A stretch of DNA of 22,273 nt from a virus. Lineage: Duplodnaviria > Heunggongvirae > Uroviricota > Caudoviricetes. Below the pieces are notes generated by a model, which ran no database searches, was not told the DNA's origin, and saw only the letters and a program-made list of their open reading frames with translations. This document shows positions 2,895 through 14,071 of this stretch, piece after piece. The stretch is from IMG/VR virus record IMGVR_UViG_3300010998_001290, one strand, 5' to 3'. Made by a program: the position numbers and the translations under genes. Within the stretch, counting starts at the first letter, position 1, and every line of letters begins with the position of its first letter.

Positions 2895-2903
2895 GAGCAA
2901 AAT

Positions 2904-3033
2904 CGGGGCAGCTCGATGTCCTTGGGACGATGAAGTACCTATCAAGCATAGGCAACTCTCGTTAAGGTTAATCCCTGTACAGTAATCCACAGGGCGCTTG
3001 TGATAGTGCGAGACGCGAAGGTAGCAGAAAAAC
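2904..3033 (+). ncRNA. putative Cas12f single-guide RNA copy 1 (scaffold 2904-3013, guide cgcgaaggtagcagaaaaac)
   Basis: Dispersed repeat with covarying stems, ends agtgcgaga, resembles AsCas12f1 tracrRNA/repeat. Confidence 0.8.
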
Positions 3034-3059: not shown

Positions 3060-3539
3060 GTGAAAAACAATATGCAAACCAAGAGAATAGTAGATGTCTG
3101 CTGCGGGAGCAGGATGTTCTACTTCAATAAAAACAATCCCGACGTGATGTTCTGTGATAACAGGGACTTCGAGGATACCTTATGTGACGGAAGAAAGCTT
3201 GAAGTCCATCCTGATCTGATAGCAGACTTCACCAATCTTCCATTTGAGGACGAAAGCTACTATATGGTAGTGTTTGACCCTCCTCATATGCTTAAGGGCG
3301 GTAAAAACTCTTGGCTTGCGAAGAAATACGGCAAGCTCCCGCCCGACTGGAAGCCTCTTATCAAGAAGGGGTTCGATGAATGTATGAGGGTACTTAAGCC
3401 TAACGGAACACTTATCTTCAAATGGGCTGAAGTCGATATTCCTGTGTCGGAGATAATCAAAACAATAGGTGTCGAGCCGATATTCGGACATAGGGTCGGC
3501 AGGTTAAATCAGACGCACTGGATGTGCTTTATGAAGTAA
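3060..3539 (+). CDS. phage SAM-dependent (N6A/N4C-type) DNA methyltransferase-like protein
   Basis: Motif I-like IVDVCCGSRMF and motif IV-like VVFDPPH. Confidence 0.8.
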   Translation: MKNNMQTKRIVDVCCGSRMFYFNKNNPDVMFCDNRDFEDTLCDGRKLEVHPDLIADFTNLPFEDESYYMVVFDPPHMLKGGKNSWLAKKYGKLPPDWKPLIKKGFDECMRVLKPNGTLIFKWAEVDIPVSEIIKTIGVEPIFGHRVGRLNQTHWMCFMK

Positions 3540-3546
3540 GAAATAT

Positions 3547-3675
3547 CGGGCTGGCTCGGCAGCCTTGGGACGATGAAGTGCTTATCAAGCATAAGTAACT
3601 CTCGTTAAGGTTAATTCTGCCATAGCATTCCGGCAGACACTATAGAAGTGCGAGATGGATCAATGAACAGCTGGC
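3547..3675 (+). ncRNA. putative sgRNA copy 2 (scaffold 3547-3655, guide tggatcaatgaacagctggc)
   Basis: Same scaffold with compensatory stem changes (tctgcc/ggcaga). Confidence 0.8.
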
Positions 3676-3962: not shown

Positions 3963-4159
3963 CGGGCAGGCTCCGGCTATAGGCAGAGCCTGATGTCAGC
4001 TTCGCGACAGCCTTGTAGTGGACGAAAGTCAGGCATCAAGCTTTGCTTGTATCCGAGAAGCACCTATCCAAGTATAGGCAACTCTCATTAAGGTTAATTC
4101 ACACATATTATTCCGTGTGACGCTCATTAAAGTGCGAGATGCAACAAATCAGAGAAAAA
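3963..4159 (+). ncRNA. putative sgRNA copy 3, long form (scaffold 3963-4139, guide tgcaacaaatcagagaaaaa)
   Basis: Conserved 3' core plus two 5' insert modules. Confidence 0.8.
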
Positions 4160-5153: not shown

Positions 5154-5187
5154 TTTATATATCGACTACGACAGGTCGAAGAATATA

Positions 5188-5350
5188 CGGGCTGGCTCCG
5201 GCTACAGGCAGAGCCTGATGTCAGCTTCGCGACAGCCTTGGGACGATGAAGTGGTATCTATAGCGGTACTAACTCTCGTCAAGGTCAATTCCTGCATAGT
5301 ATTCCACAGGACACTTGTAATAGTGCGAGATCGAGAGGGTTCCGCTTACA
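5188..5350 (+). ncRNA. putative sgRNA copy 4 (scaffold 5188-5330, guide tcgagagggttccgcttaca)
   Basis: Conserved scaffold; 22 nt separate the scaffold end from the tmRNA 5' end. Confidence 0.8.
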
Positions 5351-5352
5351 AT

Positions 5353-5709
5353 GGGGACGTAAAGGTTTCGACGGGGGTTTTGAAGGTCATTAAGCGCATA
5401 GAGTTCGTCTAAACTCTTTAATAATGGACACCTTAAAATTAAACGCAGACATTTATCACAACGATCTTGCGGTAGCTGCCTAATAGTGCGGCTCGTCCGG
5501 CTTAAGAGTGCTGCGGCTTAAGCTTGGGCGTGATACAGCAGCCAACGGCTTCGGAGAGGGTCTTGTATCTGAAACTCGTACACAAAAGACACCCGATAAA
5601 GGATCCTGTCATTCGGAGACTTTTGAGTGGTATAAAGGAATGACTATATGCGTAGAAAGATGATTGGATAAGTTTTCGGACACGGGTTCAATTCCCGTCG
5701 TCTCCACCA
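5353..5709 (+). ncRNA. ssrA: tmRNA; tag reading frame ADIYHNDLAVAA (5445-5483)
   Basis: 5' ggggacgtaaaggtttcgac; 3' T-arm gggttcaattccc and gtctccacca; acceptor with G3:U70; tag ends in AA then stop. Confidence 0.95.
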
Positions 5710-6434: not shown

Positions 6435-6510
6435 CTGTCCATAGCTCAGTTGGTAGAGCACCGGGCTTTTAATCCGGGTGTCGAGGGTTCGAGCCCCTCC
6501 GGACAGACCA
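6435..6510 (+). tRNA. tRNA-Lys(UUU)
   Basis: ccggg-cttttaa-tccgg, canonical D and T arms, CCA end. Confidence 0.95.
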
Positions 6511-6559
6511 ATTGCAATAATACGCAAAATAATATTTAAAAAGCAGAAAGGAAAAAGAT

Positions 6560-6808
6560 ATGCCTAACACGAAAACAAAGGTAAGGGCTTTCTGGGTAAA
6601 GGGTGAAAACTGGATGTCTACAATAAGTTTCAAAATAAACAGTTTTTTGTCCGAGGAATACACAGATAAGATCGGCGGCAAAACGCATCATTTCGGCGCT
6701 AAGCCTGAGCTGGTTGATATCAAATGGGCGATGTGTGAAAGAAACGGGGATATAGAGTATTCAGCACTTGTTATTTTTACTGTAGAGGATAAGAACGCAA
6801 GCGCGTAA
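6560..6808 (+). CDS. small protein, Cse60/DUF2758-like paralog
   Basis: KVRAF...KINSFL...VDIK...YSALVIF pattern; RBS aagga. Confidence 0.55.
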   Translation: MPNTKTKVRAFWVKGENWMSTISFKINSFLSEEYTDKIGGKTHHFGAKPELVDIKWAMCERNGDIEYSALVIFTVEDKNASA

Positions 6809-6836
6809 GCGGTACACAGGACGTAAATATTGAAAT

Positions 6837-7113
6837 ATAAAGGAAAGTCGGCTTAGAAGCAGCCATCTTTTAAAGAGTAAATCGTGGACACGGGTCATCG
6901 TTAAGACAGAGGAAACCTGTACGCGTATGCCCACACTGTAATCAGGTGCATCGCACATCACGGGGCAAGAGCATGCCTGTTATCGGGATAGATTACAGCG
7001 TACCAAAGCGGTTGCGACACGCAAGGCAACAAGATAGTACCGATATGTATATGCTTGTTGCTTGGTATAGTCTATATCGGCATGGATTTTTTGGCGTAAC
7101 AGCACACCTTTAT
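6837..7113 (+). ncRNA. RNA mimic of the 23S rRNA GTPase-associated centre (H42-H44) with a 215-nt structured insert
   Basis: ggcttagaagcagccatc-ttttaaagagt (6850-6878) and gcgtaacagcacac (7094-7107), closed by ataaagg/cctttat. Confidence 0.75.
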
Positions 7114-7395
7114 TCCCATAAAATATCGTTATCAAAGAGGAGCTAATATCATGAGCTTTGGCGGAACAGACTTATTTTGAAAACGTATGGCCGCAGAATG
7201 GACGATGCGGCATAAAAATATCAACCATCCTTTATGAGTAGGGGAGCTGAAATCGACTCCGGCTGCATAGAGTGAATCCAATAGCCCATAGCACTATCGG
7301 ACTATGCGTGATCGCCACACCTATCCGTTTGGGTAGTTAAGGGCTAAAAAGTGCTTGAAACGCTTGGTTGGCAGCTCGGAAAGACGGGCGTATAT

Positions 7396-7480
7396 GCAGG
7401 TGTGGCGGAATAGGCAGACGCAGTGGTCTCAAACACCACGGTGGAGACACATATGGGTTCGAGTCCCATCATCTGTACCA
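7396..7480 (+). tRNA. tRNA-Leu(CAA)
   Basis: gtggt-ctcaaac-accac, long variable arm, CCA end. Confidence 0.92.
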
Positions 7481-7484
7481 TTAA

Positions 7485-7613
7485 CGGGGCAACTCGATGT
7501 CCTTGGGGCGATGAAGTGACATCTATACGCTGTTAACTCTCGCCAAGGTTAATTTCACCATAGTATTCCGGTGAACACTATGATAGTGCGAGAATTGTTA
7601 ATGCCTCTTTGAA
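7485..7613 (+). ncRNA. putative sgRNA copy 5 (scaffold 7485-7593, guide attgttaatgcctctttgaa)
   Basis: Conserved scaffold with compensatory ggcga/tcgcc and ttcacc/ggtgaa; lies between two tRNA-Leu genes. Confidence 0.8.
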
Positions 7614-9062: not shown

Positions 9063-9190
9063 GCCGGTGTAGGCTAACGGTAAACCGGTAAAGTACAGGC
9101 ATATTGTTTTGAAAGCATGCAGGGAATTATATTCCCGACTACATATGCTTGTACACTACCAAGCTGGTTCGACTCCAGAAACCGGCACCA
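9063..9190 (+). ncRNA. tRNA-like RNA with long extended anticodon arm
   Basis: Acceptor gccggt/accggc, T-arm ctgg-ttcgact-ccag, ACCA; internal 11-bp stem gtacaggcata/tatgcttgtac. Confidence 0.65.
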
Positions 9191-9224
9191 ATCAGCCCAA
9201 AAGGGCTAAACTAACGATAAATAT

Positions 9225-10726: not shown

Positions 10727-12343
10727 ATGGACACAAAATCAGAGGGAGTAGTAATTCAATCGGAGATCGTTATGCAGTATGTTAAATCATGTGCCAAGAA
10801 CAACATTGCCAAAATATATACGGTCGGAGATAACGACTCTGAAACCGTGTTGTTTGATATTGGAATAAGCGATGTCAATAAGCACAGCATATCATTTCCT
10901 ATAAAGGATGACAACGGCAGATGCGTTATGGCTCATATTGAATTTCTGAGTTGTGCCAATCCAAATGAAGTTGACTTAGATAATTGTAAGTATATTGTGG
11001 CTATGCTCTATATTGCCAAAAGCCTTTCAGATTGCAGGGAAGAATGCCAAAAGGCAAAGCTTACTGACGCTCAGACGGGTATTCCGAATGTAATTGCCAT
11101 AAGCAGGAAATACAACAAAATTCGCAAGAAGATGAAGGCACAGAATTTGGTCGTACTGTTCATAAACATTCAGAACTTCAAATATATCAACGAAACCAAT
11201 GGAGCCAAGCACGGAGATGATGTCTTAAGAGCATATGCAAATGCTTTGACCGGGATTGTAGATGAGGAAGAGTGCGTGTGTCATATGGGCGGAGACAGCT
11301 TTGGAATGTTCATCAAAATAGAACATAAGCATGATGTTCTCAGCAAGCTTAAGTGTATCTTCATAGGGCATCTGAGGAAAAATTCTGAAAAGACATTTGA
11401 GATATCTTCGTGGATAGGTCTGTCTGAATGCGATAAAAACACAAGCAAGACGTTTATAGAGCGGCTTGACGAGGCATCAACCGCTTGCTTTATGGGAAAG
11501 GGCAGGCTTAAGAAGAATGTGGTGACATATTCCAATGAGCTCCGAAGAAAGATGGATGAAAACAGAGAGATCATCGCTATGTTCCGTCCTGCTATACTCA
11601 ACCATGAATTTACTCCTTTCTTTCAGGCAAAGGTAGACATGGAAACGGGGGATCTTGTAGGATTTGAGTCTCTTTGCCGTTGGATACATAACGGTAGATT
11701 TATCTATCTGGATCAGTTCATTCCGCTTTTGGACAAAGAAGAACTTATTCCTGATTTGGATATGACCATTTTTGATGAAACCTGCCGAGCTATCAGCAGA
11801 TGGAAGGAAATGGGGCTTAATCCTCCAAGAATATCATCGAACTTCTCAAGAAAGAACCTCTTTGTGCCTTCCGTAGAGAAAAAGATATACGAAACTATCA
11901 AGAAGAACAACATCGATGTCAATGACGTTGAGATAGAGATCACAGAAAGCGTCAAGGAAAGTGAGACAAACCGTCTTATAGATTTTGTACATCAGCTTAA
12001 GAATTACGGAATCCACATCTCTATAGACGACTTTGGCACCGGCTATTCCTCTCTGCTTCTCATACACAACATAGATGCTGATGTTATCAAGATCGATAAG
12101 TCGTTCATCGAGGAGCTTCCTGAAGACAGAAAGTCTATCGTTCTTATTGAGAGTATCATAAGCATCGCCAAAAACCTCAATATGACACTTATCGCAGAGG
12201 GAGTTGAGACGGCAGAGCAGGGGAAAAAACTCATTGAGCTTGGGTGCTCTACAGCTCAAGGGTACTATTATAGTAAGCCTATGGATTTTGAAGCAGCTAC
12301 TGAGGTTATAAGAAATCCAACTTTTAAGGCAATCAAGCACTGA
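10727..12343 (+). CDS. GGDEF-EAL protein (degenerate GGDSF, intact EAL-type PDE residues)
   Basis: MGGDSF; GFESLCRW, EITES, DDFGTGYSS, IKIDKS, EGVET, QGYYYS. Confidence 0.92.
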   Translation: MDTKSEGVVIQSEIVMQYVKSCAKNNIAKIYTVGDNDSETVLFDIGISDVNKHSISFPIKDDNGRCVMAHIEFLSCANPNEVDLDNCKYIVAMLYIAKSLSDCREECQKAKLTDAQTGIPNVIAISRKYNKIRKKMKAQNLVVLFINIQNFKYINETNGAKHGDDVLRAYANALTGIVDEEECVCHMGGDSFGMFIKIEHKHDVLSKLKCIFIGHLRKNSEKTFEISSWIGLSECDKNTSKTFIERLDEASTACFMGKGRLKKNVVTYSNELRRKMDENREIIAMFRPAILNHEFTPFFQAKVDMETGDLVGFESLCRWIHNGRFIYLDQFIPLLDKEELIPDLDMTIFDETCRAISRWKEMGLNPPRISSNFSRKNLFVPSVEKKIYETIKKNNIDVNDVEIEITESVKESETNRLIDFVHQLKNYGIHISIDDFGTGYSSLLLIHNIDADVIKIDKSFIEELPEDRKSIVLIESIISIAKNLNMTLIAEGVETAEQGKKLIELGCSTAQGYYYSKPMDFEAATEVIRNPTFKAIKH

Positions 12344-12385: not shown

Positions 12386-14071
12386 ATGGATAAATCGGTA
12401 AAGAAAAAGAAGAAATATGTGCCCTACGCCATATATATTCTCTTATTGCTTTTAGCTACACTCATTTTCTTGTCAGCTAATATACTTGTGCCATATAGCA
12501 TAAGCAAAGATTATGAAGATTTCAGCGGAGGCTGGGTGGACGAATCCGGGAACGAGGTCAATCTTGATAAAATAACACAAGATGTAGTGGTAAGAAAAGA
12601 TATATCTCCGGAATATCGCGAAACATCGGTGTTTATGAGGGCAAAGAATATAAATATTGATGTTTACCTTGATGACAAATTGTATAAATCCTACGGAAAA
12701 GATATGCTAAAAAACGTATTTTATAAAACTCCGGGAACTTATTTTGTCACAGTGCCACTATCAGACTCGAATACTATAAGGATCGAGATTGAATGTCCAT
12801 ATATAAACGACAGCAGTTGTAATATCAAGGAGTTATACATCGGAGATGAAGAAAGCATTCTTAAAAACCAGATTGCTAAGCTGATGCCGGGATTTTGTGT
12901 ATGTATTTTAATAATAATGCTCGGATTTATTTTCTGTACAGCAGCCGTAGCGATGCGCAAATATGGAGAAAACGCTATGAGCTTATTGGCTCTCGGACTG
13001 TTTAACTGCACCTTCGGGGTGTGGTCAGGACTTGAAATGAAACTTTTACAACTGGTTGTTGACAATCCTGCTCCTATACATCTCGGTGTACATTTATCGC
13101 TTATGCTTACAGTAATACCGATTTTCATTTTCTTCAGACAGAGGGGGGAGACCAAGGACAAAATCGGGCTGTATGCTATAATAACGATTACATCGTTAAT
13201 GTTTACATTTAACGTCCTTTCACATTTCCTATACTTTATGGATATGCATGAAACTATAGTCTTTTCACATGTGACTCTTGGTGCCGGAAGTGCGTTTACG
13301 TTAAAATATGCATTTGATATCTTAAGAAAATCGAAATTTAAGGAGCCTACATTTTGGGGACTGACTATCATCGGAATTTGTGCGGTAATTGATGTTGTAT
13401 TATACTACAATCAGATTACATATGACAGTTCTGCGTTTATCAAAATAGGTGTACTTGTATATATGATAGCTCTTGGGATTGATATTATCAGCGATTATGC
13501 CAAAATATATTCATCAAGCCTCAAGGCTAAAATGCTCGAACAGATAGCTTATGAGGACCTTCTTACGGGGTTCTATAATCACAATATGTTTATAAGCGAT
13601 ATGAAACTTATGAATAAAGAGCCAGAGAAGAACAGGGGAAAGAGTATCCTTATATTCGACATGAATTGTCTGAAATACATAAACGACACGTTCGGTCACA
13701 GCGTAGGCGATGCTGCTCTTAAGGAGTCTGCGGAATATATAAAGGAATGCTTTGGAGATATAGGAAAGTGCTACAGGACCGGCGGTGATGAATTCGCGAT
13801 CATATCCGACAATTGCACACCAAGAGCGGTAGTAAACAAGGCGTATAGCAAGCTGTGTGAGAAAACAACTGAACGCAATAGGGAGATGCCCGAAGACAAG
13901 CCGTATCCTCTCTATATAGCGTTCGGGTATGAAATAATCAAAGCGAATGCACAGGATACACTTAAGCAGGCGGATGCTAATATGTATAAGAACAAGCAGA
14001 GGATAAAAGCCGAACTTGCCGCTCAAAATCCTGAATTGATCAGGCAGAAAACAGAAAGCACCGGCTCATAA
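12386..14071 (+). CDS. membrane-bound diguanylate cyclase (extracytoplasmic domain, ~7 TM, GGDEF)
   Basis: DLLTGFYN, DMNCLKYINDTFGHSVGD, YRTGGDEF. Confidence 0.92.
   Translation: MDKSVKKKKKYVPYAIYILLLLLATLIFLSANILVPYSISKDYEDFSGGWVDESGNEVNLDKITQDVVVRKDISPEYRETSVFMRAKNINIDVYLDDKLYKSYGKDMLKNVFYKTPGTYFVTVPLSDSNTIRIEIECPYINDSSCNIKELYIGDEESILKNQIAKLMPGFCVCILIIMLGFIFCTAAVAMRKYGENAMSLLALGLFNCTFGVWSGLEMKLLQLVVDNPAPIHLGVHLSLMLTVIPIFIFFRQRGETKDKIGLYAIITITSLMFTFNVLSHFLYFMDMHETIVFSHVTLGAGSAFTLKYAFDILRKSKFKEPTFWGLTIIGICAVIDVVLYYNQITYDSSAFIKIGVLVYMIALGIDIISDYAKIYSSSLKAKMLEQIAYEDLLTGFYNHNMFISDMKLMNKEPEKNRGKSILIFDMNCLKYINDTFGHSVGDAALKESAEYIKECFGDIGKCYRTGGDEFAIISDNCTPRAVVNKAYSKLCEKTTERNREMPEDKPYPLYIAFGYEIIKANAQDTLKQADANMYKNKQRIKAELAAQNPELIRQKTESTGS

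Follow-up and report, generated by a model that had tools for sequence, protein, structure and literature searches.

In a stretch of viral DNA of 22,273 nucleotides (IMG/VR record IMGVR_UViG_3300010998_001290; hereafter the window), we identified a predicted non-coding RNA of 277 nt at positions 6837–7113 of the plus strand that is a stand-alone copy of the GTPase-associated center (GAC), corresponding to positions 1049–1110 of Escherichia coli 23S rRNA. The copy is interrupted by 215 nt between positions 1090 and 1091 (insert 6879–7093). The window stems from a ruminant-gut mobile element or phage, and its RNA belongs to a large, apparently undescribed phage RNA family. In the ribosome, the GAC of 23S rRNA binds uL11 and meets the translation GTPases, and the phage RNA probably mimics this site away from the ribosome.

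The register proposed in the earlier note, with window positions 6850–6878 equivalent to 23S 1062–1090 and 7094–7107 to 1091–1104, was confirmed. Likewise, the equivalents of A1067 and A1095 are both present, the pairs 1058:1080 and 1090:1101 are compensated as claimed (A:U and U:A in the window), and the new closing helix consists of seven Watson–Crick pairs that continue H42 in register. Once the insert is taken out, 43 of 62 bases are identical to E. coli 1049–1110; the 3′ half of the GAC part (7094–7106) reads GCGUAACAGCACA. A blastn comparison of the whole window with the E. coli rrnH operon gave a single rRNA match (6847–6876 with 23S 1059–1088, 93% over 30 nt), the remaining weak matches being tRNA-like, in agreement with the claim that no other rRNA sequence flanks the element. 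The window has a C at position 1061, which is free to vary across the family, and this position is not conserved in genuine GACs either (PMC6239185). Folded by itself, the window element has an unremarkable minimum free energy (z = −1.5); the structure summarized in Table 1 rests on comparison rather than on energy.

Table 1. Predicted features of the split GAC-like RNA in the window (23S positions in E. coli numbering; helices of the insert carry the suffix i)
Feature	Window positions	Strand	Remarks
Closing helix, 5′ strand (H42 equivalent, 23S 1049–1055)	6837–6843	+	pairs with 7107–7113
GAC 5′ half (1056–1090)	6844–6878	+	93% identity to E. coli 23S 1059–1088
H43 hairpin	6845–6869	+	loop 6854–6860, A1067 equivalent at 6855
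Junction (1082–1086)	6870–6874	+	
Lower H44 strand	6875–6878	+	
P1i base helix	6879–6886 (aaatcgtg) / 7081–7089 (catggattt, one G bulged)	+	pairing in 99 members
P2i (ggg-t-cat / atgccc)	6892–6898 / 6927–6932	+	covaries in L158, L026, L157
Conserved hairpin CAG-AGGAAAC-CUG inside P2i	6907–6919	+	CAGAGGAAWCCUG common to all four sequences
P3i arm (ctgtaatc / gattacag), interior variable	6936–6943 / 6991–6998	+	different complementary strands, position shared by all four
P4i (ttgcg-aca-cgcaa)	7012–7016 / 7020–7024	+	5-bp hairpin, position shared by all four
P5i (ggcaacaag / cttgttgct)	7025–7033 / 7054–7062	+	covaries in all four long sequences and in the 131-nt L007/L010 type
UUGG after P5i	7062–7065	+	invariant
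Pseudoknot, P5i loop (ccgatatg) / 3′ tail (tatatcgg)	7040–7047 / 7073–7080	+	
Linker UUUG, single-stranded, from insert to G1091	7090–7093	+	TTTG 85, TTTA 14 in 99 members
GAC 3′ half (1091–1103)	7094–7106	+	upper H44 hairpin, A1095 equivalent at 7098, and lower H44 3′ strand
Closing helix, 3′ strand (1104–1110)	7107–7113	+	pairs with 6837–6843

The same split architecture recurs in at least 142 distinct members, as found by combining two search patterns. A pattern for the 5′ half, built to exclude true rRNA, matched 36 IMG/VR contigs, and a pattern for the linker and 3′ half matched more than 120, which is a lower bound. With this many distinct members sharing the architecture and its covarying pairs, a chance match is excluded. 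Among the GenBank phages, blastn picked out Pseudomonas phage UNO-G1W1 and Aeromonas phage 4_4572, whose tRNA clusters contain an unannotated element of the same split architecture; further cultured carriers are pf16, GAP32, CBB, RSP15, XacN1 and Vibrio phage 2.275.O. Screening of 185,579 species genomes with the 5′ pattern gave matches on 8 MAG contigs only. The 3′ pattern was present exactly once in 19 of 20 member-bearing phage records, in which a reversed control pattern gave no match. Paenibacillus phage Pd_22F (L167) was rejected as a member, as the end of its record holds genuine contiguous 23S rRNA (MZ092003.1, about 83.4–84.6 kb), likely host DNA that was assembled in or packaged. In Xanthomonas phage XacN1 (L169), the member follows immediately on a gene annotated as 2′-5′ RNA ligase.

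The earlier note had suggested a search against Rfam. No Rfam 15 family was found in window positions 6500–7400 even at E ≤ 10, so that neither LSU rRNA, GOLLD, ROOL nor ribosomal protein leader models match the element, and at the gathering score the loci of 13 relatives contained only tRNAs and tmRNA. A part of a regular 23S rRNA gene (RF02541) was thus rejected: there is no LSU match, and the GAC is not embedded in contiguous 23S sequence. We also found no description of a GAC-mimic RNA family in Rfam 15 or in a full-text literature search.

Pair statistics were obtained from 99 unique members, in which the 3′ half is partly fixed by the search pattern there. Covariation, likewise proposed as a check, was strong at 1058:1080, at 1082:1086, in the closing helix and in the four-base-pair helix at the insert base. 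Position 1058:1080 was canonical in 100% of members compared with 43% after shuffling (TA 42, GC 30, AT 19, CG 4, GU/UG 4), and similar exchanges were seen at 1082:1086 (TA 63, CG 24, AT 9), 1057:1081 (AT 91, CG 8) and 1054:1105 (GC 73, AT 24, TA 2). The seven outer pairs of the closing helix were canonical in 70–92% versus 38–57% in shuffled controls, with all four pair types represented, and over positions 1047–1055:1104–1112 as a whole the share was 70–100% versus about 40%, with covariation being free. At the same time, the non-canonical pairs of rRNA type, R1056·A1103, U1060·U1078 and G1093·A1098, were retained, U1060, A1088, G1071 and C1072 were essentially invariant, and U1090:A1101 occurred in 96 of 99 members. 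Judged by this covariation, the secondary structure of the GAC ends is maintained by selection.

Position 1067 is an A in 88 of the 99 members. For A1095, the 36 members detected by the 5′ pattern alone are informative: every 3′ half found among them contains GCGUA(A/G)N-AGC, and A1095 is thus conserved independently of the search pattern. Across the family, the fold is preserved and so is the exposed 1067/1095 cleft, which serves ligands and not folding. An altered H43 loop (e.g., gggauuaauggcgucc) or an extra hairpin within H43 was seen among L039, L042, L044–L046, L077 and L056, so that not every member of the family copies the 1067 loop.

The break lies between U1090 and G1091 in every member, with insert lengths of 27–369 nt. 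In the 99 members, the first four pairs of the insert-base helix are canonical in 100, 100, 93 and 78%, compared with 66, 60, 46 and 40% after shuffling, and a UUU(G/A) linker invariably precedes G1091. As the strand 1099–1102 opposite the break is continuous, H44 could stay stacked while the insert leaves it sideways. In the window, the 215-nt domain exits H44 between U1090 and G1091 via the four-base-pair helix and returns via the linker.

The inserts fall into several unrelated classes. A CACCC..GGUAAGG type (class A) accounts for 31 of 142 listed members; others are marked by ..CCCUUAGAG or GURAUGUG, the class of the window has about 10 members, and many other classes exist. An origin of the inserts from rRNA was rejected, as a blastn-short comparison of E. 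coli rrnH with 99 of them yielded scattered chance matches of 9–15 nt only. In the 313–314-nt inserts of L080, L087 and L106, we found a hairpin GUACGRGAGGA that resembles the sarcin–ricin loop (SRL), with covarying flanking stems; it reads GUACGAGAGGA or GUACGGGAGGA and is present in just these 3 of 142 listed members, the window not being among them. The conserved CAG-AGGAAAC-CUG hairpin of the window insert is only superficially SRL-like and was rejected as an SRL copy.

The window insert was compared with three divergent relatives of its class, L026, L157 and L158, obtained from scans of IMG/VR and a metagenome collection. Five helices and a pseudoknot occur in the same order in all four sequences, and each helix differs in sequence in every relative compared. 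Three of the four stems proposed in the earlier note held up. The aaatc/gattt stem was found to be longer, comprising 8 bp and a single bulged G, and ctgtaatc/gattacag was retained as P3i. The pairing ccgatat/atatcgg also stood, not as a simple stem but as a pseudoknot of a hairpin loop with the 3′ tail. The gttgc/gcaac stem was dropped because it clashes with P5i, the relatives favoring ttgcg/cgcaa (7012–7016/7020–7024, P4i) together with ggcaacaag/cttgttgct (7025–7033/7054–7062, P5i). P4i also showed a compensatory change, 7013 T>C with 7023 A>G, in RNA contigs of runs X15 and X16. The pseudoknot complement comprises 6–8 bp of differing sequence and starts 11–12 nt downstream of the first base of UUGG in the window, L158, L026 and L157; taken as single sequences, these complements are matched by 4–38 of 500 shuffles. 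The 131-nt L007/L010 type retains P5i, UUGG and the pseudoknot.

Insertion into a helix that its removal would restore, with a U ending the 5′ part and mostly a G ending the insert as at group I splice sites, might suggest that the 215 nt represent an intron, or an intervening sequence that is cut out, and that the mature product is a mini-GAC of about 62 nt, spliced or in two pieces. We regard this as very improbable. No Intron_gpI or other Rfam family matched even at E ≤ 10, a group I core would not fit into inserts of 27–100 nt, the last insert base is an A in 14 of 99 members, and no P1/IGS pairing was seen. A group I intron (RF00028) was accordingly rejected, with no covariance-model core in 6500–7400 at E ≤ 10 or in the 13 relatives' loci at gathering score. 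Moreover, RNA contigs from four metatranscriptome runs of three ruminant-gut studies span 6850–7111 without interruption or joint (about 95% identity), and one additional RNA contig represents a relative whose insert measures about 59 nt. Among these contigs of relatives, there was also no back-joint that would point to a circular form. These contigs are assemblies of close relatives for which DNA carry-over is possible, and they do not define ends, strand or abundance. The relatives from which they come are about 95% identical to the window and have different flanks, and the contig ends at 6850 and 7105–7111 probably reflect k-mers common to rRNA and other family members. The unspliced form with its insert is present in RNA libraries. 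In an RNA contig (X15 record 3), positions 7191–7232 are covered at higher depth.

Around the element, nine tRNA genes and one tmRNA gene lie on the plus strand between 5353 and 9542, with tRNA-Lys ending 327 nt 5′ and tRNA-Leu starting 283 nt 3′ of it. This arrangement is a family trait. In all 69 relatives with a tRNA in the examined locus, the nearest tRNA shared the strand of the element, and within 3 kb of members we counted 404 tRNAs on the same strand versus none on the opposite one. Most members lie between tRNA genes, 45 of them at most 100 nt from a tRNA. The earlier note had spoken of a phage tRNA operon: the tRNA/tmRNA array is real, whereas its phage nature does not follow from the window's own genes. 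These encode a TnpB-like protein, two GGDEF/EAL proteins, HTH regulators, a NADAR protein and a Tn916-type integrase; no virion gene is present within the 22-kb window, and the association with phages thus rests on the relatives. Matching DNA occurs in ruminant-gut metagenomes. The view of a selected, stand-alone structured RNA was borne out by the covariation, the single copy per phage, the strand agreement with tRNAs (69 of 69) and the RNA contigs that retain the insert.

Several other features of this neighborhood deserve mention. The tmRNA gene (5353–5709; Rfam 156.7 bits; tag ADIYHNDLAVAA) heads the tRNA array on the mobile element. A repeat of about 75–130 nt occurs five times with 72–83% identity (2896–3016, 3539–3641, 4069–4142, 5185–5333 and 7477–7579), one copy ending just before the tmRNA gene and one lying between two tRNA-Leu genes; it is conceivable that these repeats represent guide or omega-RNA-like scaffolds that are set free together with the tRNAs. 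A TnpB/Cas12f-like ORF is located at 381–1865 (Pfam Cas12f1-like_TNB; PHROG transposase). Positions 9166–9197 resemble the T-arm and acceptor end of the neighboring tRNAs (repeat family D4); neither ARAGORN nor Rfam called a tRNA there, and it may be an unusual or degenerate one. Proteins of c-di-GMP turnover are encoded adjacently (GGDEF+EAL, 10727–12343; GGDEF, 12386–14071), and a gene for a NADAR-domain protein, of a family that processes ADP-ribose, lies a few kb from the GAC-mimic RNA (18420–19061), a single co-location.

An 82-codon ORF ends 29 nt 5′ of the element, and a strong Shine–Dalgarno sequence (aagaggag) with a 9-codon ORF follows directly (7136–7181). Such flanks would suit a cis-regulatory element, a leader or 3′ UTR acting via a ribosomal protein. 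We consider this, or else a dead fragment of captured rRNA, the most improbable of all readings. Across 150 loci no conserved ORF adjoins the element, its usual place is between tRNA genes, and no ribosomal protein leader model matches. A decaying rRNA relic is excluded by the covariation together with the new closing helix. In the same vein, tblastn of 25 window ORFs against 155 loci revealed no conserved protein neighbor adjoining the element, no ribosomal protein gene is present in the window, and a promoter and terminator scan gave nothing above chance.

The isolated GAC fragment of about 60 nt folds autonomously and binds uL11 and thiostrepton (PMC6239185). As the GAC fold is copied nearly exactly in the phage RNA, we infer that the approximately 277-nt RNA could act in trans, binding host uL11 as an off-ribosome decoy of the ribosome's factor-binding site, a proposal drawn from sequence comparison for which we see about even chances. 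The RNA would be transcribed together with the tRNAs, and its ends would fold as the 58-nt GAC fragment does, which by itself binds uL11 in vitro. Host uL11 might then be bound, and the resulting ribonucleoprotein would compete off the ribosome with ribosomes for whatever recognizes the GAC site, for which a translational GTPase, the stringent factor RelA, a host toxin or a GAC-aimed antibiotic are candidates. As an outcome, the phage may tune translation or stress signaling, or shield ribosomes. Genes for uL11, GTP_EFTU or RelA_SpoT proteins were found in 0 of 20 member-bearing phage records each, and a partner of these kinds would thus be the host's; RtcB was encoded in 3 of the 20. The variable insert would be an accessory module, and the SRL-like hairpin of a few relatives would supply the other half of the factor-binding site. 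These hairpins in L080, L087 and L106 point to an imitation of the whole factor-binding site and thereby favor the off-ribosome, uL11-binding decoy. The changed H43 loop of the L039 type and the changed A1095 of L158 speak against a strict mimic of the uL11 or factor site, and a sponge for uL11 would affect free or exchangeable protein only.

More tentatively, we may speculate that these phages bear a free-standing mimic of the factor-docking site, with the GAC always and the SRL sometimes present, that together with host uL11 captures or activates a translational GTPase or stringent factor off the ribosome. If true, this would be an RNA-level phage control of host translation or (p)ppGpp signaling, with its target tuned by the variable inserts.

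The inserts could also be the working part themselves. The GAC would then bring uL11, and perhaps the uL10–bL12 stalk or a GTPase, to the insert, which would engage a second ligand or build up an assembly. Several insert classes (class A, the class of the window and the SRL-like class) are conserved and elaborately folded, which is unexpected for a mere spacer and thus counts in favor of such a scaffold. On the other hand, inserts as short as 27–45 nt exist, and the common function of the family therefore cannot require a large insert; nor was a class-specific protein neighbor found. We thus deem the scaffold function rather unlikely.

Unlikely as well, and somewhat more so, is a protective role in which the RNA absorbs a host toxin, a competitor's effector or a thiopeptide acting on H43/H44. 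For phage tRNAs, a role in countering tRNA-directed nucleases has been suggested, and the location in tRNA arrays would fit a parallel strategy. The A1067/A1095 cleft, the site of thiopeptides and factors, is conserved though dispensable for the fold. ADP-ribosylating effectors that act on H44 of the GAC exist (Tre23, Photorhabdus), and the NADAR-domain gene in the window might be seen in this context, although the link is one co-location. We know of no GAC-aimed defense system acting against phages, however, and a stoichiometric decoy would face tens of thousands of competing ribosomes.

The decoy that binds host uL11 would, if true, be the first virus-encoded stand-alone copy of a functional rRNA domain. 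To our knowledge, phages take over translation by way of tRNAs, tmRNA and a few ribosomal proteins, and an RNA-based route would join these means. Structural work would, in that case, gain a natural GAC scaffold that evolution has already tuned. Members of this large family occur in cultured phages that infect Pseudomonas, Cronobacter, Pectobacterium, Ralstonia, Xanthomonas, Aeromonas and Vibrio, which makes the family directly testable. To this the window contributes a member on an element from the ruminant gut, a fold with good support for one class of inserts and evidence from RNA libraries that the insert is retained.

Among known systems, the bacterial 23S GAC itself (E. coli 1051–1108) is the closest, with the same secondary structure in exact register, nearly identical A1067 and A1095 loops, shared non-canonical pairs, the same bases of the tertiary fold (U1060, A1088, G1071 and C1072) and a free position 1061 in both. 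In contrast, the phage RNA lies outside an rRNA gene, among tRNA genes, and has its own closing helix of arbitrary sequence; it has U1090:A1101 where E. coli has A:U, and its H44 is broken at 1090/1091 by a helix, a module of 27–369 nt and the UUUR linker. Leaders of ribosomal protein genes (L10_leader, RF00557; L1, S15 and L20) likewise mimic ribosomal protein sites of rRNA off the ribosome. They are cis-acting, partial mimics and cellular, whereas the phage RNA is a nearly exact domain copy with no ribosomal protein gene adjoining. Group I introns of 23S rRNA are also structured insertions in a conserved rRNA helix with a U before and usually a G at the end, but the phage insert has no group I core, can be as short as 27 nt, ends with an A in 14% of cases and is retained. 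GOLLD (RF01998) and ROOL share the setting, being ornately folded phage RNAs next to tRNAs with unknown function, yet neither matches the phage RNA in sequence or model, and neither copies an rRNA domain. The principle of an abundant small RNA that resembles a nucleic-acid site and draws off the protein binding there is known from 6S RNA, a mimic of the open promoter, and EBER1 of Epstein–Barr virus binds the ribosomal protein eL22. In fold, host and target, both are unrelated to the phage RNA, and neither is homologous to it. The phage RNA would apply the same principle to the factor-binding site of the ribosome.
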